A DNA stretch of 64,000 nt from a virus (IMGVR_UViG_3300048060_000061:1-64000), one strand, 5' to 3'. Shown: positions 12,303 to 55,133, numbered from the stretch's first letter. Program-made: numbers and translations. The notes: generated from the letters alone by a model not told the origin.

Positions 12303-13250
12303 ATGAGCAAAGAAGTTTATATTTATGGATTGTATGATCCAGAAAGTAGGGAGTTAAGATATATAGGTAAGACAGTTAACCTTAATAACCGATTGTGGTA
12401 TCATCTTAGAGATGCCAAAGGAGGTCAAAGAACACACAAGGCAGCGTGGATAAGAAAATTATTGCGTCAAGGATTAGAGCCTATTATATCACCAATTTGG
12501 GAGACAACAGAAGAAGGATGGCAGGAAGATGAAAAAGCCTGTATTGCTCAGGCGTTAAGCGAAGGGGCTAATCTGACAAATTTAACAAAGGGTGGCGACG
12601 GGATTATAGGTTATAGCCATTCTGACGAGACTAAAGAAAAGATCAGAAAATACAATCTTGATTCTGGTAGAATCCCTCCTAATTGGAAAGGGCGAAAACA
12701 ATCACCTGAACATATCGCCAAGCGGGTTGAGACACGCCGAAAAAACGATACTTATGCACATACTGCTGAGACTAAAGAAAAAATAAGTGCCAATCGCAAG
12801 GGTAAGGCAATGGGCAATACTAATACTTTGGGTATGAAACATACTGATAAGTGGAAGAAGGCTCAAAGTAAAAGATCGTCAGGTGAGAATAATGCATTTT
12901 ATGGCAAGAAACATTCTGATGAAACTAAGAGAAAAATCAGTGCTGCTAAAAAGGGGACCAAGGCTTCAGAAGAAACCAAGGCAAAGTTAAGCGCAGCGCA
13001 GCAAAAGCGCATACGAGATAAGCAGGCAAAACATATAGCCCAAATCGCTATCCCTTACGATGAACTGATTACCATGTCGGATGATCCGCAGATAAACGAG
13101 ATACGCCGTCTATATGTGGAAGGAATGACCAAAAAAGAGATAACTGAGCATCTTGGTTATAAGAGTTATGGCGGCGGTAGGTTTTATACGAAGATGAGTA
13201 AAGCGATAAAGAGTATACCTATTACAGGGAAGGGGAATGATGAAACTTAA
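12303..13250 (+). CDS. GIY-YIG homing endonuclease with NUMOD3 repeats
   Basis: VYIYGL...RYIGKT, NLTKGGDG, repeated HSDETKEKI/HTAETKEKI/HSDETKRKI. Confidence 0.9.
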   Translation: MSKEVYIYGLYDPESRELRYIGKTVNLNNRLWYHLRDAKGGQRTHKAAWIRKLLRQGLEPIISPIWETTEEGWQEDEKACIAQALSEGANLTNLTKGGDGIIGYSHSDETKEKIRKYNLDSGRIPPNWKGRKQSPEHIAKRVETRRKNDTYAHTAETKEKISANRKGKAMGNTNTLGMKHTDKWKKAQSKRSSGENNAFYGKKHSDETKRKISAAKKGTKASEETKAKLSAAQQKRIRDKQAKHIAQIAIPYDELITMSDDPQINEIRRLYVEGMTKKEITEHLGYKSYGGGRFYTKMSKAIKSIPITGKGNDET

Positions 13251-15854: not shown

Positions 15855-15979
15855 CGGTCCACCCCCACGCCTGTGGGGAAAACTGGTAAAGCTAAGATGT
15901 CAGGTGGTCTAACAACGGTCCACCCCCACGCTTGTGGGGAAAACGAAAGCTGCCATCTGTTCGGTCCACTCCCATACGC
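15855..15979 (-). CRISPR. Mini-array 1 (type I-E-like repeat) downstream of tnpB
   Basis: Two 29-nt repeats GTTTTCCCCACA(A/G)GCGTGGGGGTGGACCG (15855-15883, 15916-15944), a 32-nt spacer, and a half-repeat (15962-15979) with a 17-nt spacer. Confidence 0.9.
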
Positions 15980-16070
15980 TATAATATTAAATTGTGAAGG
16001 TTTCGCTGTCAACCGAGCCAATGCAAGAAGGTTATCGACAGCGCAGTCACCCGCGAACCTACGGGCGATT
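15962..16070 (-). ncRNA. omegaRNA/tracr-like scaffold copy 1, overlapping the tnpB stop codon
   Basis: Homologous to 17804-17924 and 23670-23790 with compensatory stem changes; overlap with the tnpB 3' end is typical of omegaRNA. Confidence 0.8.
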
Positions 16071-17333
16071 ATAATCAGGATTTACGAAAAGTCGTATCCC
16101 CTCGTTTCTCAGGTTAATAGCTGCGTTCAGATCACGTTCATTCTGTTGTCCGCAGCCTTCGCAAGTCCATATCCTGTCACTCAAAGTTAGGTCAAGTTTT
16201 TTTTCTCCACATCCTGAACACAACTTAGATGAGGGGAACCACTGATCTACTATACCAATAGTACCATTATAAAAATCAGCTTTATATTCAAATTGCCGTT
16301 TCATTTCGTAAAAGCCAGCATCAGAAATAGCTTTGGCTAATTTATGGTTTTTTAGCATCCCGCCAACATTTAAGTCTTCGAGAATGATAAGGCCATAATT
16401 CTTTGTGACGTTTGCTGTCAATTGATGTTGAGCGTTGCGCCGTAGATTTTTAATCCTGGTATGTAGATTTTTAATTTTGTGCTCAGTTCGTAGCATCTGG
16501 TTAGACTGATTTTTCGGACGTTTGCCTTTTTTCACTGTGCCATCTTCATTGTAGCATCCTGGATTATTAGACCGGCGTTGTCGGTCTAATTTCCGTTGCA
16601 ATCGCCTTAACTGAGCCTGTGCTTTATAATATGCTTTAGGATTTTCAATAGTTTCGCTATCGCTAGTAACGGCAAGATATTTAATCCCCAAGTCGACTCC
16701 TACGATTTCAGAACTTGGAATAATATCAGGCTTTTCAAACTTAACCTGAATTGAGGCCCAAAACCATTGACCGTCATAAGAGAAGGTAGCGTTCATTATC
16801 TTGCCCTGAAAACGCAATTCTTCGCACATTCTGATATAACCAACTTTGGTATTATAGCGAATATGTTGACCGTCTAATTTCAGACAGATATTAGTAGCCC
16901 GGAAGCTATTATGGTTTCGTTTGCTGCGCCAATTTAACCAGCCTGATTGACGGTAATCCTTGCGAGGTTTGTCATTATGACTATTGATTTTGACCTTACC
17001 CTTACGAATGTCAAAGTATCGTTGCAATCCCTTTTGCAAGTCACCAAAAGCCTCTTGAGTAGCACTGGCAGTTTTATCCTTCACCCAATCTGGTTTAATT
17101 TTATTGTACAGGGCTTTGAGGCTCTTTTGCTCGGTCACTTTATCATTAACAGTAATTGATGTGAATTTGTAATTTTCACCAGTTTCACGATAGGTTATTC
17201 GGTTTAGATCATACTCAAAATCGAGTATCTCTTTGCCGAAATTCCAGGCATTACGGGCGGCTGCAAAGGCCCTCATTAGGTGTTGCTTTTGCTTTTCGGT
17301 TGGTCTAAGTCTAATTTTGTGTGATCTTATCAT
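16059..17333 (-). CDS. tnpB: TnpB-family RNA-guided nuclease, CRISPR-flanked, no transposase partner
   Basis: N-terminal HKIRLRPT...ARNAWN; RuvC I GVDLG, RuvC II LEDL, Zn finger CSGC/CEGC, Ruv[13 protein letters not shown]. Confidence 0.92.
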
Positions 17334-17369
17334 TTTATTAGAATGTAAAGTAATTTCAGTCGGTTTATT

Positions 17370-17803
17370 CGGTCCACTCCTACGCTTGTAAGAAAAACGG
17401 ACAAACTTGTGTTTTAAGAAAAGGGCGGTCCACCCTCACGCTTGTGGGGAAAACCGTTACGCCTATTGCTACCACAGATGCCACTCCGGTCCACCCCCAC
17501 GCTTGTGGGGAAAACCCAAACACAGCGCAAGCTGCCACAAGTTGATCCGGTCCACCCCCACGCCTGTGGGGAAAACAAACATTATGACGGTCCACCCCCA
17601 CGCTTGTGGGGAAAACTCATCACAACGTTTGCAATCGGTCATATCGCACCGGTCCACCCCCACGCTTGTGGGGAAAACGTTGCCCTGAGATTTGTTGTTT
17701 TGAATAGGCGTACGGTCCACCCCCACGCTTGTGGGGAAAACTCATCACAACGTTTGCAATCGGTCATATCGCACCGGTCCACCCCCACGCTTGTGGGGAA
17801 AAC
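17370..17803 (-). CRISPR. Mini-array 2 (8 repeats, 7 spacers) upstream of tnpB
   Basis: Repeats start at 17370 (degenerate), 17426, 17487, 17548, 17588, 17650, 17713, 17775; spacers 27, 32, 32, 11, 33, 34, 33 nt. Confidence 0.97.
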
Positions 17804-17924
17804 ACTACTAACGTGTAACATTCACCCACACGCTATAATATTAAATTGTGAAGGTTTGACAGACAACCAAGCCAACGCTCTAGGGTTCACGTCTGTCCAG
17901 TCACCGGCGGACCTGCCGGCGATT
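17804..17924 (-). ncRNA. Scaffold copy 2 / array leader
   Basis: Hairpin CGCCGGC-AGGTCC-GCCGGTG, stem GACAGAC..AACC/GGTT..GTCTGTC, anti-repeat ACCTTCAC. Confidence 0.8.
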
Positions 17925-18063
17925 TGTTTTCTAATTCCAATCGGTTTAACTCAGCAACGACCAGCCGGTGAACTATTAACACCTGCGGTTCCTTGGTGAG
18001 TTTTTTGATTTGTCTGATTACTTCTAGGGTATCAACCCATAATTTTGTTGATTCTCGATCCAT
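17887..18063 (-). CDS. Small ribbon-helix-helix-like regulator (58 aa, not in ORF track)
   Basis: MDRESTKLWVDTLEVIRQIKKLTKEPQVLIVHRLVVAELNRLELE...: strand-helix-helix pattern; follows promoter at 18095-18122. Confidence 0.6.
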   Translation of the reverse strand: MDRESTKLWVDTLEVIRQIKKLTKEPQVLIVHRLVVAELNRLELENKSPAGPPVTGQT

Positions 18064-18094
18064 AAATCATATTTATCACAAACTGTTTTCTGCC

Positions 18095-18122
18095 ATTGTA
18101 CCACTTTTGTACCCTTTGTCAA
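18095..18122 (-). promoter_or_regulatory. Promoter of the RHH-scaffold-array-tnpB unit
   Basis: TTGACA-16-TACAAT with TGn extension; contains GGTACAA twice. Confidence 0.65.
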
Positions 18123-18207
18123 ACTTAGAGATGTTTAAAGAATTAGTACAGGCAGCCTATGTTATGGTATAATATTAGCAGTTATATCTGGTTTCTCCTT
18201 TTATCGG

Positions 18208-18244
18208 AAAGACCGCCCGGTGTTTTAACCGGGCGGTCTTTTTA
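18208..18244. terminator. Bidirectional terminator after Ro60
   Basis: AAAGACCGCCCGG-loop-CCGGGCGGTCTTT. Confidence 0.8.
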
Positions 18245-18288
18245 TATTAATGGTAAGACTATCTCAACTGACATTTTAGCGACGATTA

Positions 18289-19890
18289 CTATTCTATCCT
18301 GTCAGCCTTTACAAAATCGCTTATCACTTGCGGCGTAGATGTATCAAACCCTATAACATCCAGCATACCACTATCTTCAGGGTCAGCAACACTAAATCCA
18401 CTGGGAGTCATCCCCACTACAACAAGCTTGGATGGAATTTCCATTTGATGGCGATATTGTTGCAGCGCTTGTACAGGATGGATATTACCAGCCCAGGTTT
18501 CATTATCCGTATAGACAATAAAAGTATCTATTTCAATTCCGTTTTGTAGCGCATACAACATTGGTAAAGCGCAATCGGTCCGCCCCCACGGAATATCATA
18601 TATCTGTTGGATAACATCATCTAATCGTTGTCGGGCGGATAAAGTGACCGGGATCATTTGATGACTAAAAGCCGTAATTATATGATGTGGTTCCATTCTG
18701 GCTGTAATCATAGCCATTGCTCCAGTAGCTTCGCGAGGTGTAATAGGCATCCCGGCGATAGTATTCCAACTCATTGAAGCCGAAACATCAAGAGCTAGCA
18801 TTGTCCGTTTATTAGTTATTTCGGTATTACCAAATGACAAATAGAAAGCCTCATCTAATGCGTTAATAATTTCAGTAATCGGTGACCAAGATAATCTGCC
18901 TTTCATTCCGTGACCCTGGGCGTAAATTTTTAGAGCTACCAAGATAGCCAAGGGATGAAGTCGCGACTTTTTGATATAGGCTTGATCAGTTAATTTACCG
19001 ATAATAAGGCTTGTTTCGTTCCCCATCGGTTTTAATAATCCCACCCGTGTCATTTTCCCTAAGTTTCGTATTAACGCCGTAAGAGGCATTTTTTGTAGAA
19101 GGGCGCTCCAAATGGCAGGCTCGTTAAGCCATTTGGTCGGGATCATTTCGCGAGTAAGACCTTCATCTAAAATAAGGGAAACTATAGCCAATTTGTTTGT
19201 GGCAACCTTGGCATGCTCAAAGGCGGCAATTAAATCTATATCGCCATATTTTGCTTCTGGGTTACCGACAATCCATTTATATAGGTCATTTCGCATATCT
19301 GCGTCCTTAGAATTATCCGGTATTGGATGGCTGAGGCGTAAAGCATCTCGATGACTCCATCCGTCGCGTTGCTGGTACTTAATTACTTGATAGGCCAGTT
19401 TATCGACAGGCATATAATTGTACCAATTAGCTACAGCCCGGCGTAAGCCTCGTCCCCAACCCCGAAAGCCCTCAACGTATTCAAGGAAATGGAAAAGGTG
19501 AGTACCAATGCGGGCCACTTGCGGAAGTACATCAAAGGCCGCCCGGCGCGTTTCAATATCTCCTATTCCAGCACATATAGCTAACGTAAACAAAGCTGGA
19601 TCGTTCTTGGGCGCTCGACCACCTTTACTGACTTCAACGACTTTAGCAACAACTTGTGGACCGTTATTTTTGATACAGCGTACCACTGCCTGCGCGTTAT
19701 CAATTGTTAATTTTCGTTCATTGGCATAGTAGGTCCCCCCCTCAGATCCCAGGACAAGAAAACGGTCCAGGCGTATCCAGTCATCGACTGCAAAGACATA
19801 CCCCCCGGCCGAATTTTTGACCATTTGTTTATCTGGAATTGCTTGGGTTTGTGGAGTTTGTCTGATTGAAAAATGCTGTCTGTATTTCAT
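18289..19890 (-). CDS. rsr: Ro60 / TROVE-vWA RNA-binding protein
   Basis: NSAGGYVF, RFLVLGSEGGTYY, GWGRGLRRAV, KYQQRDGWSHRD, MPLTALIRNLGKMT, vWA DVSASM, YTDNET, GFD; start placed at ATG 19890 after GGAG RBS. Confidence 0.95.
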   Translation of the reverse strand: MKYRQHFSIRQTPQTQAIPDKQMVKNSAGGYVFAVDDWIRLDRFLVLGSEGGTYYANERKLTIDNAQAVVRCIKNNGPQVVAKVVEVSKGGRAPKNDPALFTLAICAGIGDIETRRAAFDVLPQVARIGTHLFHFLEYVEGFRGWGRGLRRAVANWYNYMPVDKLAYQVIKYQQRDGWSHRDALRLSHPIPDNSKDADMRNDLYKWIVGNPEAKYGDIDLIAAFEHAKVATNKLAIVSLILDEGLTREMIPTKWLNEPAIWSALLQKMPLTALIRNLGKMTRVGLLKPMGNETSLIIGKLTDQAYIKKSRLHPLAILVALKIYAQGHGMKGRLSWSPITEIINALDEAFYLSFGNTEITNKRTMLALDVSASMSWNTIAGMPITPREATGAMAMITARMEPHHIITAFSHQMIPVTLSARQRLDDVIQQIYDIPWGRTDCALPMLYALQNGIEIDTFIVYTDNETWAGNIHPVQALQQYRHQMEIPSKLVVVGMTPSGFSVADPEDSGMLDVIGFDTSTPQVISDFVKADRIE

Positions 19891-19926
19891 AAATATCTCC
19901 TCTGGATAGTAATAAATTTGAACAAC

Positions 19927-19958
19927 AAAAAGAAGCCGGGAAATCCCGGCTTCTTTTT
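19927..19958. terminator. Bidirectional hairpin between Y RNAs and Ro60
   Basis: AAAAAGAAGCCGGG-AAAT-CCCGGCTTCTTTTT. Confidence 0.75.
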
Positions 19959-19964
19959 GTAATA

Positions 19965-20089
19965 TAGGCAAATTATTGAAATTGGGGCTTTTAGTGCTCT
20001 ACCACTGAGCTACCCGCCTTGGTAGGCGGGGCTGGATTTGAACCAACGACCACTCTCTTTCAAGGAGATAACCCAACATCGTCCGGCCC
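19965..20089 (-). ncRNA. yrlA: YrlA-like Y RNA with circularly permuted tRNA-like domain
   Basis: 5' GGGCCGGA and 3' AATTTGCC Ro-binding stem; T arm GTTGG-TTCAAAT-CCAGC, closed acceptor CCCGCC/GGCGGG, D arm GCTC-AGTGGTA-GAGC; adjacent to Ro60. Confidence 0.85.
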
Positions 20090-20110
20090 ATATCGTATTC
20101 TTAAAGAAAC

Positions 20111-20168
20111 CGGGCAAATTTGCTGTTGTGGAATTCTATTTTAAGAATAATCCATAACATCCGGCCCG
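20111..20168 (-). ncRNA. Second, short Y RNA without tRNA-like domain
   Basis: Same termini (GGGCCGGATG...AATTTGCCCG) enclosing only a simple hairpin. Confidence 0.65.
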
Positions 20169-20273
20169 ATAAAATTATTTTAGCATGCTTTGGAAATCTG
20201 TCAAATTTGTAAAATTCTTCCAGGTCAGATAGAATACTATTAAATACTGAACGAAGAAAGCAGAGGCTTTGGT

Positions 20274-21038
20274 ATGAAAGTTCATTCATTGACTATATTG
20301 CACTACGGCGCGGATTATCTATCCTACGCCTTAAGATCAGTTTACCACAACGTAGACCAACTCCACATATTTTACACACCAACCCCCTCACATGGTCACA
20401 GTACAAATACCCCTCCGATAGAAACCAAAGAACAATTACTTCAGGCAGCTTATGCCTATAACCCTGATGAAAAGGTCAGATGGTATGATATGCTTGGAGT
20501 TACGCAAGAGGGCCCTCAGCGCGATCTTGCCTTGCGGACGGTTCAGGCGGCCGGCGCTGAATTGGTTGTGGTTGTAGATTATGATGAAATTTGGGGAAAT
20601 GGTGTTTTGGAGGAAGTATTATATCAAATTTACAATGATGGGACTGCAAGAAATAACTTAGTAAACATGGTACATCTCTGGCGCTCATTTAATTGGTGTT
20701 GCAGAGATGAAGGCTGGCCAGTTCGGATTATTGATTTGCGTCAGAATAATGATAATGTTTTATATATTCCCAAAGAATTTGACATTTATCATTTTGGTTA
20801 TGCTGTAACTAATCAAATCATTAATTATAAGTGGCAAATCCACGGTCATAAAAATGAAATGCGTCCAGGATGGTTAGAAGATGTTTGGGCTATATGGCCG
20901 CCAATAGATAATTGCCATCCGACGAACGGCCGCAACGATGAAGGTAAGGCGTTTTGGTCGCCTGAACCATTCGACAAAACGCAGTTTCCGGAGTTTATGC
21001 GGGAGCATCCATTTTGGGATTTAGAGATGATAAGATGA
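20274..21038 (+). CDS. Glycosyltransferase (GT-A fold)
   Basis: YLSYALRSV, QRDLAL, VVDYDE (DxD), YHFGYA. Confidence 0.75.
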   Translation: MKVHSLTILHYGADYLSYALRSVYHNVDQLHIFYTPTPSHGHSTNTPPIETKEQLLQAAYAYNPDEKVRWYDMLGVTQEGPQRDLALRTVQAAGAELVVVVDYDEIWGNGVLEEVLYQIYNDGTARNNLVNMVHLWRSFNWCCRDEGWPVRIIDLRQNNDNVLYIPKEFDIYHFGYAVTNQIINYKWQIHGHKNEMRPGWLEDVWAIWPPIDNCHPTNGRNDEGKAFWSPEPFDKTQFPEFMREHPFWDLEMIR

Positions 21039-21925
21039 GTGAAATTGTTTTTGCCAAGCCTGTGCATCAGTATGATTCATACAGAGACTTTTGGACTTTG
21101 GTAACTCTATCGGGGTTTTCCACAGTATCAGTGAGTGATATAGACCTGACCAAAGATATTATCTATATCACTGCTCCAATGAATGGAGATTATAAGGAAC
21201 ATTTCTATGGTGATCTTAAACACTATGAGGAAACCGGGGAAATGATTGGTGGAGAACTTCAAAGACGGAAAATATCTGGTCAACAACGTTTGGCTCATTT
21301 AATTGTCTGGAATCTTGAAAGACCAGCCGGCAGTGGCAGCACCGGAAATTATGCTAAAGATTGTTTCAAATGGATGGAAACTAGAATTGCTGACGAAGTT
21401 TGGATTAGCGATCCGATGCTGGCTGATGAGACGCAAACACGCTTCGTTTTGCTTGGCTCTCATCCGGGATTAGGTGAATTATCAGACAAAAAGTCTTATG
21501 ACTTTTGCCATATGAGCTTGGTGAATCCCAGGCGAACGACAATATACAAACACTTTAAAGACAAATTTCGGATAGGCCCCAACTGCTGGCCACCTGAACG
21601 TGATGAAGTACTGGCCAGCAGCAGGTTTGCTTTGAATGTTCATCAAGATAACTATCCATTCTGCGAACCACTTCGCTTCGCGCTTTTTGCAGCCTATGGA
21701 TTGCCGATTATTTCAGAGATTTTGGCAACCGGTCATCCGTATAATGATGTGGTTACTTTTTCTTATCATGATCTGGTAGCCGGCCTTAAAGTTGCTTTGA
21801 ATGATGATTATGATCAGTGGAAAGCACGCGGAGCGGCACTGCATCAAAGGCTATGTTATGATTTTCAGTTTGGCGATATAGTAAGGAAGGCGGTTAGCGA
21901 GAGCGCAGGAATAAGATGGAGATAG
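21035..21925 (+). CDS. Putative glycosyltransferase (GT-B-like C-terminus)
   Basis: ERDEVLASSRFALNVH...EPLRF...PIISE. Confidence 0.65.
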   Translation: MSEIVFAKPVHQYDSYRDFWTLVTLSGFSTVSVSDIDLTKDIIYITAPMNGDYKEHFYGDLKHYEETGEMIGGELQRRKISGQQRLAHLIVWNLERPAGSGSTGNYAKDCFKWMETRIADEVWISDPMLADETQTRFVLLGSHPGLGELSDKKSYDFCHMSLVNPRRTTIYKHFKDKFRIGPNCWPPERDEVLASSRFALNVHQDNYPFCEPLRFALFAAYGLPIISEILATGHPYNDVVTFSYHDLVAGLKVALNDDYDQWKARGAALHQRLCYDFQFGDIVRKAVSESAGIRWR

Positions 21926-22836
21926 AGAAAGTAGCTGATATGAGCATACTAAAACTATGTTATATTGAAAATAATAAAGCATACTTTACTACTCAAAAAT
22001 TATCCCAACAATGGGGAACAAATTGGGATGAAATTGATTATCAACATAACGCAGGGGAACCATATAAACCTATCCTTTATAAACATTTTAACGAAGATGG
22101 GACGCCTAAATGGATAATTGAAAAAGTGTTCTTTTATGGGACGTTTAAGCGGGCTGGTACCGACTTATGGGATAATCCATATTCAGTTGAGATGATAAAT
22201 AAGGGTAGGGTTCCTTGGTTAACTCCTTATAAAGAGCAAGGAATTCCGCCTATAATGGCGGGTATTACTTTGGAAGAATTTATCAAATTTATAAAGATAC
22301 TTTGTCCAAGATGCATGCAAGAAACAAACAATGATTTCGGAGAGGATTGCAATTTATATGTTGAAGTAATGGGCAATACAGAAAGTCTGCGTTTTATGTG
22401 TAATGACTGCGCTATTTGGGCCTGGAATAGATTGGAAGGGTTATTAAAGAAATCGGGAGAATAATGACCAAGAAAGAAATTATCATAACAGAGGAGATAT
22501 ATATTGACGGGAAATTTGCAGGAAAAACAGCCAAATGTATCAGGGATGGGCGCGGCTTTTTGGGTTATATGTTGCCGATATTTGTAGGTATCATTACATA
22601 TATGCAGATTGTAGTTTGGTCATAGGAAAAATGACCAATGGAGAACAAGGAATTGAGTACGGAATTAATACTCAGCAGGAATTTCTCAAAATTAAAGAAA
22701 TTAGAAATTTCCGAACCTGATATAGATGATGTTATATATAATCTAAATTGTTTGATAGGTTATTTCAATGCTATTGAACACTATGGGGCGTCAAATACAG
22801 CTCTATGTGCAAAGCAAATAATAAAGAGTTTGAAAA

Positions 22837-23646
22837 ATGACATCAATTAGCGGCTTTACCTTTGGACATAATTTGATAGACAGCGGCTATCCAATCGTCG
22901 AGGCAATCCGGGCCATACAATCTTACGTTGATGAGATCGTTTTTGTTGATATGCAGTCAACGGATAATACGCGAGAAGTTTTGGATCAATTGGCTGAAGA
23001 CAATGCTTCCAGGGGTTCATATATGGACATTCTTGGTTTACCTCGTCATTATCCTCCTATCAAAATTCTTGAAGGCTTCTGGGGAAACCAAGCCGGTGAG
23101 ACCTTACGCCAGGCCCATTCAAAACACATCGAATGTTCAGGAGATATAATTGTCCACTTTGAAGCAGATGAAGTATTTGATTATGAGCTTATTCAGGGGG
23201 TTATTGAATTGATTGAAAATGGGCAGACTGATATTGCCGTCTATCGGTTGCAGATTGAAACAAACTTTCAGCGATGCCGTTGGTATCCTGAGCCTGTACA
23301 TAGAGTTTTTCCGCGTTTAAGCAACACACGGAAAGAAGGACATACGACAAATCGACATGCGCAAGCGTTTGTCATTGGGCCAGAAAATGGCTATTTGTGG
23401 GACATCACGAATAGCTTTAGGGATAATTGGATAAACCGAGTAAATAAGCAAGCTGAATTACGAAATACTAATCCGCAATATTTAATGACACCGATCCATG
23501 CACTTCATAAAGTTGAGTTGACAGAAGCTGAGGCGCATCAATGGCTTTTTAGTGGACGGCACTGGACTTGGACAGAGACACCATTTAATATCCCTGAGAT
23601 TTTAAGGCCGCTTGTGGGAGTTACTCGATATGAACCAAAAGTATGA
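22837..23646 (+). CDS. Glycosyltransferase family 2
   Basis: YVDEIVFVDMQSTDNTREVL; FEADE. Confidence 0.8.
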   Translation: MTSISGFTFGHNLIDSGYPIVEAIRAIQSYVDEIVFVDMQSTDNTREVLDQLAEDNASRGSYMDILGLPRHYPPIKILEGFWGNQAGETLRQAHSKHIECSGDIIVHFEADEVFDYELIQGVIELIENGQTDIAVYRLQIETNFQRCRWYPEPVHRVFPRLSNTRKEGHTTNRHAQAFVIGPENGYLWDITNSFRDNWINRVNKQAELRNTNPQYLMTPIHALHKVELTEAEAHQWLFSGRHWTWTETPFNIPEILRPLVGVTRYEPKV

Positions 23647-23669
23647 AGGATCAGAAGAAATTAAAAGAA

Positions 23670-23790
23670 AATCGCCCGTAGGTTCGCGGGTGACTGGACA
23701 GACGTGAACCTTCTCGCATTAGCTCGGTTGTCTGTCAAACTTTCACAATTTAATATTTAAGCGTGTGGGTGAATGTTACACGTTAGTAGT
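23670..23790 (+). ncRNA. Scaffold copy 3 (orphan, no adjacent nuclease)
   Basis: CGCCCGT-AGGTTC-GCGGGTG hairpin, GACAGAC/GTCTGTC stem, ACTTTCAC anti-repeat; homologous to copies 1 and 2. Confidence 0.8.
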
Positions 23791-23944
23791 GTTTTCCCCA
23801 CAGGCGTGGGGGTGGACCGCGTTTGTCAAGGACTGCTACCAATTGGGACGTCAGTTTTCCCCACAGGCGTGGGGGTGGACCGACATTGCCGACGTGTACG
23901 GGATTAGTTTTATTGGTTTTCCCCACAGGCGTGGGGGTGGACCG
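23791..23944 (+). CRISPR. Mini-array 3 (3 repeats, 2 spacers)
   Basis: GTTTTCCCCACAGGCGTGGGGGTGGACCG at 23791, 23854, 23916; spacers 34 and 33 nt. Confidence 0.95.
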
Positions 23945-23970: not shown

Positions 23971-24886
23971 ATTGTGAAATTATTGGGCGTTGGAGCAAAT
24001 GAAATGCAAAATACCTAAACTTAAAATTATGAGACCTGATTTGTGTAAAAGGATTATTTATGAACGACCACTCCAGAGGAAGTAAATGGGAGAATTAAAA
24101 TGTCGATGAGTACACATGTGATTTTTCTTAGAGATAAAACCGATTTGCAGTATCAAAAGTTCCTCAAGGTACTGTTGGCTTGCAAAGAAGCTGGCATTGA
24201 TCTACCCAAGGAAGTAGATGATTATTTTGGCGGGGACGGACTTGATAATGACCCAGAAGAACCTTTACAAATGTCATTTGAACCTCGCGAGTGGATCAGT
24301 GATATGTCCGAAGGATTTGAAATTGATATTAATGAAATACCACCAGGCGTGAAAACAATACGGTTTTATAATTCATGGTAGATAATGGACAGAGTTACTT
24401 TATAAGGCAAGAATGTAAATGTGAGGAATGTAAAAATAGTTGCGCTTATAAACCTGGTTGGTTTTTGCCGGGAGAAATTGAAAAAGCTGCACAGTATCTA
24501 ATGATGTCTGAGCAAGAATTTTTCGATCAATATTTAGGAGTTGATTGGTATGAAGATTTTAATGACATATTTGTACTTGCTCCAGCTATAACGAGTATGT
24601 ATCCGGGAGAAGAATATCCTGCTAACCCAAAGGGGCAATGCGTTTTTTTTCATAATGGATTATGTAATATTCATTCTGTTAAACCGTATGAATGTATAGA
24701 AAGTTATCATGCGGATACTTATGATATAAGTCAAAAAAGACATTCTTTTGTAGCACAAACATGGATAGATAAACAAGACTATATTTGCACATTATTAGGA
24801 CGCGATCCTGAAAAAGAGGGATATGCTTTTTTTGATGCATTTTTATGGTGATTATTGTGAAATTATTGGGCGTTGGAGCAAATGAA
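23971..24886 (+). repeat. 33-bp direct repeats (23971-24003, 24854-24886) flanking two small genes
   Basis: ATTGTGAAATTATTGGGCGTTGGAGCAAATGAA occurs identically twice. Confidence 0.9.
24375..24851 (+). CDS. YkgJ-like cysteine-cluster (Zn/Fe-S) protein
   Basis: CKCEECKNSC and CVFF..GLCNIHSVKPYEC. Confidence 0.75.
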   Translation: MVDNGQSYFIRQECKCEECKNSCAYKPGWFLPGEIEKAAQYLMMSEQEFFDQYLGVDWYEDFNDIFVLAPAITSMYPGEEYPANPKGQCVFFHNGLCNIHSVKPYECIESYHADTYDISQKRHSFVAQTWIDKQDYICTLLGRDPEKEGYAFFDAFLW

Positions 24887-52973: not shown

Positions 52974-53106
52974 AAATTATCTTACCTGAAAGTCTACTTA
53001 AATCGTCTCAACTTCAAACCTACCGTTTCTATTTTCATTTACTTCCCTTTTATCACTAGCCATCATTTGCGATTAAAGTGTACGGTATAGGTATACCAGT
53101 TTTCCA

Positions 53107-53143
53107 TCGAACCGGGACTGTCTGCATTTTAAGTGCAGTGCCT
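53107..53143 (-). repeat. Exact 37-nt copy of tRNA-Leu(TAA) segment 52914-52950
   Basis: TCGAACCGGGACTGTCTGCATTTTAAGTGCAGTGCCT occurs at both positions. Confidence 0.95.
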
Positions 53144-53152
53144 GTTCTTTTT

Positions 53153-53426
53153 ACTTACTCACAAACGCCCGTGGGGAAACCATGCAACACCGGGCCTGAT
53201 TTCGGTTTAAAATCACTGATCCTCCAAACGCCCGTGGGGAAACCGACCTCCACAACCCACGATAACCGTTGAACCCACTGATCCTCCAAACGCCCGTGGG
53301 GAAACCGAATTGATCCTTATCAAAACAAACATCCCTGATCCTCCAAACGCCCGTGGGGAAACCTGTGAAGTGGGTTCGCGCATGTTCAACCGCGAACCTG
53401 ATCCTCCAAACGCCCGTGGGGAAACC
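53153..53426 (-). CRISPR. Mini-array 4 (5 repeats, 4 spacers) downstream of the C2c9/Cas12n-like gene
   Basis: 29-nt GGTTTCCCCACGGGCGTTTGGAGGATCAG at 53398, 53335, 53278, 53216 and degenerate 53153; spacers 34, 28, 33, 34 nt. Confidence 0.95.
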
Positions 53427-53526
53427 CCTGAAAAGAGCAAATAAAAAGGTAATTCGCTCACTGTTAATATCAGCCGAATAATCTTGGCTGCACGTAACTA
53501 GTGTCTTGGTTGAGCAGTCCCAACCG
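53427..53526 (-). ncRNA. Predicted omega/tracr-like RNA overlapping the 3' end of the nuclease gene
   Basis: Hairpin GGTTGGG-ACTG-CTCAACC, stems CACT.GTTA/TAAC.AGTG and CAGCC/GGCTG, then CCTTT..TGCTC complementary to repeat GGGCG..GGAGG. Confidence 0.55.
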
Positions 53527-54849
53527 TGCAGACTTTTCCTCTAGCCTGCGTTCAAATTGCCCGGTTCGTGCTAATAAAATTACCTTAACATCTTTATAAG
53601 GCGTAAATAACCGTATCTCAGGATCATTCAGCCTGGCCAAGATATTCCGAGCAGCATTTGTATCCGCTTGCAATACCTTCCCGTCGAAACAGTAAAACCT
53701 ATCCCCATTACGATGCCCCAATAGGATACCGTGCCGGGAATCAGTTTGCGAGGTATATGCAGCATTAACTGTTTTAATCGTAGAACCTCTACGATTAGAT
53801 ACCGATTCTATTGCCTCAGCTATAGCACCCTTCGTCCAACCAGCAAGACGGCGGTTTTGATTCTTGCCGTATGACTTGCCATTTATCGGGTTCGTTAAAT
53901 CTTCGGTGACTATAATGTCGGCCTTGTCAACTACTGAATGAGCCGCCTTGAAAATCTTGTCTCTTACATTGGCTGTATGTATACGCTTGCGCTCATCCAG
54001 CTTTTTACGCCCCAAGTTGTTTTTTAGAATATTATCACACTTATGGGGCTTCGCTTCCGCTATTGCCTTTAGCTTGTTTCTACGTTGATACTTGGTTTTA
54101 AGATAGTCTGATTCCTTACTTAACAATTCTCCTAGTCCTTCACCGTGGTGTTTCCCATCTGAATCTACAAAGACCTCAGTATAACCTTTATCAATTCCTA
54201 TAGTCCCATCACCACTGGGTCGAGTAACGCAAACCTTTTCCTCATCAATAGCATAATGTACTTCAATACGTCCATTACGTAGGATCAACCGAAGTGTTCC
54301 CGATGGAGTATTGTTGCTATTCAAAGGGATAGCTATGCGCTTCCCAGATTCCAAGCTCATTACCTTAAGCCAAATCTTACCACCCTTTTCAAAAGTCGTA
54401 TAGCATTGGGAATCCAGTACAATCTGATTATCAACCTTGGTTTTACCGTGCTTAAAATATTTACGCATCATACGACGCAAATAACTATCTTTCAACCAAT
54501 TGTCATATTTAAGCAGAGTATAAAGGCGTTTACGCTCGTCATTATCATCAGTCCTTTGGCGTATTGCCTTTCGCACTTTGACTTTGGCAGCTTCACGGTA
54601 AGTAACTATATCTGCGAAAGTATCTCTTAAGGTTTCATTCCGAAGACGGGCGGCAATATTAAAGTGCCTACCTTCGGCGGTCCATTGATTTCTTATTTGA
54701 CGGTGTGTTAATTCTACACCTTGGACTGAACCAAAGCGTTGCCAGACTTCAGCCCGTAGTTTGCCCAATCGACTAGCCATTTCAGTTAATTGAGCTAACT
54801 TTCCTTCATTAAGATTTTGGCTGTAGATAATCCGAGTAACTTTACTCAT
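53470..54849 (-). CDS. cas12n: C2c9/Cas12n (type V-U4)-like TnpB-lineage RNA-guided nuclease
   Basis: N-terminus KVTRIIYS..LNEGK...EVWQRFGS as I recall for the C2c9 clade; RuvC GIDKGY, TEDL, ADTNAARN; degenerate Zn finger; adjacent array. Confidence 0.7.
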   Translation of the reverse strand: MSKVTRIIYSQNLNEGKLAQLTEMASRLGKLRAEVWQRFGSVQGVELTHRQIRNQWTAEGRHFNIAARLRNETLRDTFADIVTYREAAKVKVRKAIRQRTDDNDERKRLYTLLKYDNWLKDSYLRRMMRKYFKHGKTKVDNQIVLDSQCYTTFEKGGKIWLKVMSLESGKRIAIPLNSNNTPSGTLRLILRNGRIEVHYAIDEEKVCVTRPSGDGTIGIDKGYTEVFVDSDGKHHGEGLGELLSKESDYLKTKYQRRNKLKAIAEAKPHKCDNILKNNLGRKKLDERKRIHTANVRDKIFKAAHSVVDKADIIVTEDLTNPINGKSYGKNQNRRLAGWTKGAIAEAIESVSNRRGSTIKTVNAAYTSQTDSRHGILLGHRNGDRFYCFDGKVLQADTNAARNILARLNDPEIRLFTPYKDVKVILLARTGQFERRLEEKSARLGLLNQDTSYVQPRLFG

Positions 54850-54856
54850 CAGATAC

Positions 54857-55048
54857 TTATACTACCTTGTCTTTCTTTTTTACCGTAGGTGGATTGACCT
54901 GAATATCACCGCTAATTCCCAACAGAATCAGAGCTTCAACATATGATTGCCAGCGAATAAAGCCAGATTTTTTAGCAATATCTATAAGTTTTTCTTTGAA
55001 ATCTTTTTCAATCCACATTTGGAGGTTGATTTGATTTTCACGGGTCAT
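54857..55048 (-). CDS. Ribbon-helix-helix-like regulator
   Basis: INLQMWIEKDFKEKLIDIAKKSGFIRWQSYVEALI; GAGGAG RBS; promoter TTGACA-17-TATATT at 55100-55072. Confidence 0.6.
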   Translation of the reverse strand: MTRENQINLQMWIEKDFKEKLIDIAKKSGFIRWQSYVEALILLGISGDIQVNPPTVKKKDKVV

Positions 55049-55133
55049 ATTTTTGCTCCTCAATCATATTCAATATACACCTCCTATACAGAATTGTCAA
55101 CTCTGGAATAGATATACTATAATTAAGCAAGAA

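Follow-up and report, generated by a model that had tools for sequence, protein, structure and literature searches.

Among the known systems close to the one reported here is TnpB of ISDra2 with its omegaRNA (PDB 8H1J, 8EXA; PMC10097598), in which a scaffold of ~100 nucleotides (nt) overlaps the 3' end of the nuclease gene and the guide lies on its 3' side; nucleotides -5 to -3 of this RNA pair with nucleotides -103 to -105 in a pseudoknot (PMC10097598). We found a comparable element in a phage. In IMGVR_UViG_3300048060_000061:1-64000 (64,000 nt, referred to below as the window, which covers the first 64 kb of a phage genome that is complete at 103,196 bp and has terminal repeats), copies of a scaffold of ~100 nt are found at the 3' end of a TnpB-like gene and at the heads of CRISPR arrays with type I-E repeats. 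It is likely (we put the probability at about 70%) that this scaffold derives from the omegaRNA of the TnpB-like nuclease and works either fused to one guide or as a head, similar to a tracrRNA, of arrays in type I-E format.

The likeness to the ISDra2 system includes the size and domains of the nuclease, the length of the scaffold and its overlap with the gene, the position of the guide, and guide-adjacent nucleotides that are able to pair with the 5' part of the scaffold. There are also differences from IS200/IS605 omegaRNAs: no transposase (among the genes scanned) and no sign of mobility were seen, five scaffold copies accompany a single gene, half of a type I-E repeat forms the end of the scaffold, and most copies head arrays where an omegaRNA has a single guide.

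Transposon–CRISPR intermediates, named TranC, were reportedly introduced by Jin et al. (Cell, 2025), and the solved member is LaTranC (PDB 9JFO). TranC effectors are TnpB-like and use both a fused right-end RNA and a tracrRNA plus CRISPR RNA (crRNA) (PMC13565253; bioRxiv 10.64898/2026.03.27.714800). TranC resembles our locus in having a fused form together with arrays that have a tracrRNA-like scaffold (a putative one here), in lacking adaptation genes, and in having phage examples (e.g. CauTranC9). But TranC repeats have been reported as 32-38 bp long, their subtype unknown, whereas here they are bona fide type I-E repeats of 29 nt; each array here has its own scaffold at the leader position, and ISDra2 TnpB is a closer match to the protein than LaTranC is.

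Cas12r of the Thermus Lalka phages (bioRxiv 10.64898/2026.04.20.719267) is likewise a phage-encoded, TnpB-derived effector without adaptation genes, found with short arrays of 29-bp I-E-like repeats and 32-33-nt spacers, for which adaptation by the host type I-E system was proposed. A conflict over a transfer RNA (tRNA) attachment site was described for these phages; here the guide of one scaffold copy and one spacer of a relative are tRNA-like. Compared by description, our locus differs from Cas12r in its protein of 424 amino acids (aa) and in the co-varying ~100-nt scaffold that accompanies every array. A tblastn search matched 394 phage records, and the 25 best of these include none from Lalka phages.

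Cas12f (type V-F) is similar as a miniature effector with a TNB domain, and its guide RNA is built on a long tracrRNA with two sites of pairing to the repeat, one of which resembles a pseudoknot (PMC10097598). The protein studied here, however, belongs to a different clade (E-values of 1e-6 to 1e-8 for Cas12f, as opposed to 1e-39 for TnpB). We know of no Cas12f system with type I-E repeats, nor of a fused form at the 3' end of a Cas12f gene. Cas12 hacker/Cas12p was set aside because of its size (500-700 aa). With TranC and Cas12r, the transition from transposon guide RNA to CRISPR RNA has become an experimental question.

Conservation and covariation of the scaffold

A preliminary description of this DNA, made from the sequence alone, had placed three copies of the scaffold in the window. 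The three ~100-nt copies were recovered at these places, and each precedes a CRISPR array; two further copies (4 and 5) elsewhere in the genome had been missed. The five copies (three inside the window, two beyond it) and the associated features are as follows, with scores in bits from a covariance model, R1 (see below).

15855..15944, minus strand: CRISPR array 1, two 29-nt repeats and one 32-nt spacer
15945..15961, minus strand: 17-nt unique segment from the fused half-repeat of copy 1 to the first full repeat
15962..16071, minus strand: scaffold copy 1 (fused, omegaRNA-like), model R1, 104 bits
16059..17333, minus strand: gene for a 424-aa TnpB-like RNA-guided nuclease, by Pfam domains
17370..17803, minus strand: CRISPR array 2, eight repeats
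17804..17925, minus strand: scaffold copy 2 (array-linked), model R1, 95 bits
18095..18122, minus strand: promoter-like site (TTGACA, 16 nt, TG-n-TACAAT), consensus match only, 11/12 positions
23669..23790, plus strand: scaffold copy 3 (array-linked), model R1, 101 bits
23791..23944, plus strand: CRISPR array 3, 29-nt repeat in three identical copies, two spacers (34 and 33 nt)
genome 88272-88393, beyond the window, plus strand: scaffold copy 4, heading a 5-repeat array
genome 89138-89245, beyond the window, plus strand: scaffold copy 5, without an array

Read along the minus strand from 18.1 to 15.8 kb, the order is promoter-like site, copy 2, array 2, tnpB, copy 1, the 17-nt segment and array 1. 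Copy 3 is on the opposite strand, ~6 kb from tnpB.

Each window copy folds to the same two hairpins, and the base changes between the copies are those given in the preliminary description. For stem 1, copies 1 and 3 read CGCCCGU/GCGGGUG and copy 2 reads CGCCGGC/GCCGGUG, which amounts to one swap of C-G to G-C and one change of U.G to C-G; the U.G pair is there because the tnpB stop codon UAG occupies this site (in copy 1 it lies at the junction of stem 1 and its loop). In stem 2, copy 1 has CGCUGUC/GACAGCG, and copies 2 and 3 share GACAGAC/GUCUGUC: both sides differ at four of the seven pairs, with pairing kept throughout, and the inner AACC/GGUU is invariant. Copy 3 thus has copy 1's type of stem 1 and copy 2's type of stem 2. 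The loop reads AGGUUC in copies 1 and 3 but AGGUCC in copy 2; for the anti-repeat, copies 1 and 2 have ACCUUCAC and copy 3 has ACUUUCAC. For the RNA in the sense of tnpB we propose a fold that would consist of an 8-bp stem 1 closing the loop AGGUYC and a stem 2 with a 7-bp co-varying outer helix, the inner AACC/GGUU helix and a GC clamp, followed on the 3' side by AAAC and then the anti-repeat CYUUCAC.

The claim that these changes reflect a selected RNA structure is borne out by larger alignments (of 13 and 18 copies), in which both stems strongly co-vary. The first is a plain MAFFT alignment of 13 copies, not fitted to a model: 98.9% of its pairing cells are paired (86% after shuffling, and 28-43% when partners are slid), ten pairs are doubly changed (none of 500 shuffles was as high), and all seven pairs of the outer stem 2 show covariation. 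R1, the covariance model built from this alignment, matches exactly the three window copies and 15 copies elsewhere. The second alignment, fitted to the model, contains 18 copies (16 complete) from eight phage genomes or contigs; here 98.3% of the pairing cells are paired and 12 pairs are doubly changed, again with 0 out of 500 shuffles as high, and covariation again extends to all seven stem-2 pairs. Over both alignments, the slid-partner controls give 25-43% pairing. Stem 2 occurs in about 11 sequence versions among 16 copies, one of them unlike all others, and each version pairs with its own 3' arm.

About 10% of the cells in the 18-copy alignment (~37 out of 361) are G.U pairs, and only when the strand is read in the sense of tnpB; this fits an RNA from the tnpB-sense strand rather than a DNA hairpin, since DNA or the other strand would have G.T or A.C mismatches at these positions. 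No family in Rfam 15 matches any of the scaffolds (E-values up to 1).

The difference in stem 2 within this genome is counted as a single, old split between two scaffold lineages, and it is the relatives that supply the independent events. An array-linked copy is closer to the array-linked copies of other phages than to the copy at the gene 3' end of its own phage; therefore the two versions in this genome are old paralogues that have both been kept, i.e. two long-lived scaffold lineages with co-varying stems in one genome. We also observed a partly duplicated scaffold in one of the relatives (relatives' loci are given L numbers here): in L167 (8426-8610, 10353-10470) stem 2 and the anti-repeat occur twice, and the copy at the gene 3' end has no stem 1, so recombination between scaffold copies evidently occurs.

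Linkage of the scaffold to one clade of TnpB-like nucleases

The nuclease has the Pfam domains HTH_OrfB_IS605, OrfB_IS605 and Cas12f1-like TNB. Across 26 relatives, the RuvC residues D214, E319 and D401 do not vary, nor do four zinc-finger cysteines. Among solved proteins, ISDra2 TnpB matches best (E-value about 5e-39); the matches to LaTranC (2e-23) and to Cas12f proteins (1e-6 to 1e-8) are weaker. Many metagenomic relatives with 50-82% identity were found, while among named phages the best tblastn matches are at most 37% identical (25 best of the 394 matched phage records). Scans of IMG/VR revealed no relatives outside this genome, neither with the protein nor with the apical motif of stem 2 (68 matches, all chance on inspection).

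The start of the scaffold precedes the TnpB-like gene's stop codon by ~10 nt in five lineages (this phage, L015, L165, L168 and L313). As in known omegaRNAs, it adjoins a gene for a TnpB with intact RuvC and zinc-finger residues and overlaps the gene's 3' end on the same strand. The linkage of effector, scaffold and arrays is stable across relatives: scaffold and arrays are present at all eight loci (this phage included) whose TnpB is 51-100% identical. As an outgroup we used 80 loci from the metagenome scan with TnpBs that are 31-38% identical; the scaffold is found at none of them, their omegaRNA regions have no sequence or model match to it, and an array is found at about one of 81 more distant loci. 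The features of a mobile IS200/IS605 or IS607 element are not seen: no transposase (tnpA) was found among the genes scanned by tnpB or the called genes of the relatives' loci, and tnpB of this family is single-copy in the phage genome.

A second, different TnpB-like gene is located at about 53100-55100 of the window (minus strand; TNB match at 53641-53823, open frame of 463 aa). R1 has no match at this gene.

Type I-E repeats and the leader position

The repeat is a genuine type I-E repeat. Its pattern is found in over 120 bacterial loci, where the longest array has 101 repeats, and in one bacterium (L177) it directly follows cse2, cas7e, cas5e, cas6e, cas1 and a cas2 of I-E type. The arrays have the type I-E format: a 29-nt repeat (readable, for example, at 23791-23819 of the window, plus strand) with a CCCC...GGGG hairpin and an ACCG 3' end, and spacers that are mostly 32-35 nt across arrays. 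The phage arrays share with bacterial I-E arrays the repeat sequence and length, spacers of 32-33 nt, a degenerate distal repeat and an AGT junction; the bacterial arrays, however, lack the structured element, and the phage is without detected I-E cas genes (neither cas6e nor cas1 was found in the complete genome).

In 120 bacterial loci and 24 viral contigs the same repeat is present but the scaffold is missing, so the scaffold cannot be a leader that this family of repeats has in general; this agrees with the preliminary description, which had argued against an ordinary leader, and the element is instead tied to the TnpB-like gene. Its place is nevertheless that of a leader. The repeats of array 2 are degenerate at the old, tnpB-side end, far from the scaffold, which puts the scaffold at the leader end, where new spacers enter. 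In copy 2, stems 1 and 2, the anti-repeat, an AU-rich linker and a half-repeat without handle are followed by a conserved box of ~20 nt that abuts repeat 1. This box ends in AGT, and bacterial leaders of the repeat family also end in AGT, AGA or AGG. A terminator-like hairpin in the 3' part of array-linked copies was considered and set aside, as conservation of its fold is not supported.

Array 2 also contains the same 33-nt spacer twice, as part of an exactly repeated 92-nt unit (17587-17803, minus strand), and one spacer shortened to 11 nt; the array has therefore been reshaped by recombination between repeats.

Fused and array-linked forms of the scaffold

In the 3' part of the scaffold, AAAC and the anti-repeat are followed, in some cases after an AU-rich linker, by a duplicate of the repeat's 3' half. 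Copy 1, for example, has stem 1, stem 2, the anti-repeat, an AU-rich linker and a terminal half-repeat with the handle GUGGACCG. Fused forms, in which the GGACCG-type end is kept and is followed by unique sequence (a scaffold plus guide, as in an omegaRNA), were found in five or six lineages: copies 1 and 5, L015, L016 and L165 (downstream), and L314 (upstream). The 17-nt segment after copy 1 has the length of a TnpB guide and is shorter than a type I-E spacer. In all array-linked copies, on the other hand, selection still maintains stems 1 and 2, but the half-repeat in cis has a decayed handle. One genome with one unexpanded TnpB of 424 aa thus holds the fused and array forms of the same scaffold together.

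The anti-repeat and its cognate repeat can form a duplex of 8-9 bp (-9 to -13 kcal/mol) in all array-linked units, and shuffled anti-repeats equal the true duplex in 0.5-1% of trials. In L314 the repeat has GCG in place of GUG, and both anti-repeats have GCG in place of CAC, with no compensating change in the 5' arm of the repeat itself. Between the stem-1 loop and the handle, 4-5 bp are possible in every unit, at a site formed by the five nt before the last G of the repeat. The loop variant GGUCC occurs only with GGACC, and the L016 loop GCCC occurs with GGGC. Read from the sequences, the complementarities of anti-repeat and loop to the repeat are suggestive of pairing.

Proposed mechanism

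We propose that the scaffold, once transcribed, would be the guide RNA of the phage's TnpB-like nuclease, descended from the omegaRNA (right-end RNA) of that protein, and that it would load onto TnpB and direct the cutting of DNA. In copies 1 and 5 the scaffold would run on through a repeat's 3' half, with GGACCG as its end, to a single guide, giving a natural single-guide omegaRNA; the half-repeat would pair with the anti-repeat, and the GGACC just 5' of the guide would pair with the stem-1 loop, forming a pseudoknot as in ISDra2 TnpB. Copies 2, 3 and 4, which have lost the handle of their own half-repeat and head CRISPR arrays, would act like a tracrRNA: their anti-repeat and loop would pair in trans with two parts of each repeat's 3' half, GUGGGGGU and GGACC, and this pairing would place the following spacer in the guide position of TnpB. 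New spacers would be inserted by the Cas1-Cas2 of a host type I-E system, which we infer from the repeats being true I-E repeats and from the box before the first repeat ending like bacterial I-E leaders. The phage may use the system against rival mobile DNA.

The locus is a clear example of an already described half-way stage between transposon guide RNA and CRISPR, in this case with type I-E repeats that were borrowed. By analogy with Cas12r of Thermus phages, it probably represents a TranC-like TnpB-CRISPR intermediate that borrows spacer acquisition from the type I-E system of its host. Forty further TnpB-derived branches linked to CRISPR are known, and for the origin of their arrays two options have been put forward: duplication of a segment of the omegaRNA, or insertion near a pre-existing array (PMC10691335). 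Our locus bears on this choice, as it shows an array that was taken from another CRISPR class and did not grow from the omegaRNA. If active, the system would offer a very small nuclease with a short scaffold and guides in the well-understood type I-E format, and would be a case of a phage exploiting the adaptation machinery of its host.

It is also possible, if doubtful, that the scaffold serves as an adaptor, through which TnpB would be programmed both by the phage arrays (filled by the host) and by transcripts of the host's own type I-E arrays; this could happen because a type I-E repeat that is widespread in bacteria has, in its 3' half, complementarity to both the loop and the anti-repeat. 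The phage would then take over the immune memory of its host for fights with rival elements.

Evidence against the proposal and alternative explanations

Several observations weigh against an omegaRNA-derived scaffold acting in trans. The box formed by the last ~20 nt before repeat 1 is conserved in sequence and has no conserved fold, as expected of a DNA leader; a leader role at the DNA level probably coexists with the role as RNA. Inside the copy 1 scaffold there is a promoter-like site (TTGACA, 17 nt, TAATAT), from which array transcripts could start downstream of the stems. The upstream array of L168 (1335-1390) is headed by the anti-repeat, linker and leader box only, without stems 1 and 2 (a complete scaffold is present downstream of the gene in this locus). 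The repeat retains its own Cas6e-type hairpin, which would compete with pairing in trans, and a cut by Cas6e would remove the partner of the anti-repeat. The stem-1 loop is nearly invariant and has two U residues that are able to pair with A or G, so the pseudoknot rests on only two or three informative changes. Finally, no protospacers and no transposon-adjacent motif (TAM) were found among all loci examined, nor were protospacers found by exact scans of IMG/VR with three leader-proximal spacers.

Of the same kind is the finding that Cas12r of the Lalka phages (564 aa, 29-bp I-E-like repeats) works with crRNA alone, without tracrRNA (bioRxiv 10.64898/2026.04.20.719267). TnpB might similarly read the arrays without a scaffold in trans, with the hairpin and handle of the repeat acting as a mini-scaffold and stems 1 and 2 serving the fused guides or the first unit in cis. 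The repeat hairpin does mirror the terminal hairpin of the scaffold, and each array retains its own cis scaffold even though one trans copy would suffice. We consider this unlikely: in a lone crRNA, GGACC (at the pseudoknot position that is conserved in TnpB and Cas12 guide RNAs) would have no partner, the anti-repeats of L314 track the change in its repeat, and the decay of the cis handle in every array-linked copy went along with continued selection on the two stems.

The arrays could also be ordinary phage-borne type I-E mini-arrays that are read by the Cas6e and Cascade of the host, the element being a leader only and its closeness to TnpB accidental. The genuine I-E repeat with its intact Cas6e-type hairpin and ACCG handle, the spacers of 32-35 nt, the leader-proximal box conserved in sequence only, and other viral contigs that bear the repeat without a scaffold are all consistent with this. 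But a mere leader is quite improbable given that its stems co-vary, with G.U pairs, and that it is missing from the 120 bacterial loci with the same repeat. Moreover, single-guide fusions without an array exist, the tnpB stop is overlapped in five lineages, the 17-nt segment of copy 1 falls short of the length that Cascade needs, and the link to the TnpB clade persists down to 51% protein identity.

Least of all do we expect the hairpins to be DNA structures of an IS200/IS605-type transposon end recognized by TnpA, with the copies as ends or solo ends: the nuclease has IS605 OrfB domains, IS605 ends bear subterminal hairpins, and copies flank tnpB in direct orientation, but there is no tnpA among the genes scanned by tnpB or called in the relatives' loci, ~10% of the cells would be G.T mismatches in DNA, tnpB is single-copy in the phage, and the element ends in a CRISPR half-repeat and heads arrays.

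Spacers and guides

No spacer from the repeat-bearing bacterial and viral loci matches the phage, and none of the fused or terminal guides recurs elsewhere in the phage genome (allowing up to two mismatches). Logan contigs from four sediment metagenomes contain the locus, and in them the same repeats enclose many further spacers, which are not assignable to this phage.

The guide of copy 5 (genome 89246-89290, plus strand) resembles the 3' part of a tRNA gene (T arm and acceptor strand), and a spacer of L165 (850-884) resembles the 5' part of a tRNA. The copy 5 guide is absent from five candidate host genomes and 401 genomes of the same phylum, and neither the guide nor the L165 spacer has a match among the five tRNAs of the phage or in 405 bacterial genomes.

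Promoter-like site and neighbouring genes

The promoter-like site at 18095..18122 is ~170 nt upstream of copy 2 and, judged by its consensus match, could drive scaffold 2, array 2 and tnpB.

Just past array 3, an exact 33-nt direct repeat (window 23971-24003 and 24854-24886, plus strand) brackets two small genes, one of which encodes a CxxCxxCC zinc or iron domain. Two genes for pentapeptide-repeat proteins adjoin copy 5 (genome 89385-90648, minus strand), and what DNA similarity the phage has to the examined bacterial loci is confined to pentapeptide-repeat genes. A GIY-YIG/NUMOD3 homing-endonuclease gene is found at 12303-13250 of the window (plus strand). Between tnpB and copy 3 there is a gene for a 560-aa protein with Ro60/TROVE and vWA domains (19971-18289, minus strand), and directly upstream of it a match to YrlA-like Y RNA (19963-20089; E-value 2e-8, below the Rfam gathering score); the phage thus seems to carry a Ro60-Y RNA pair.

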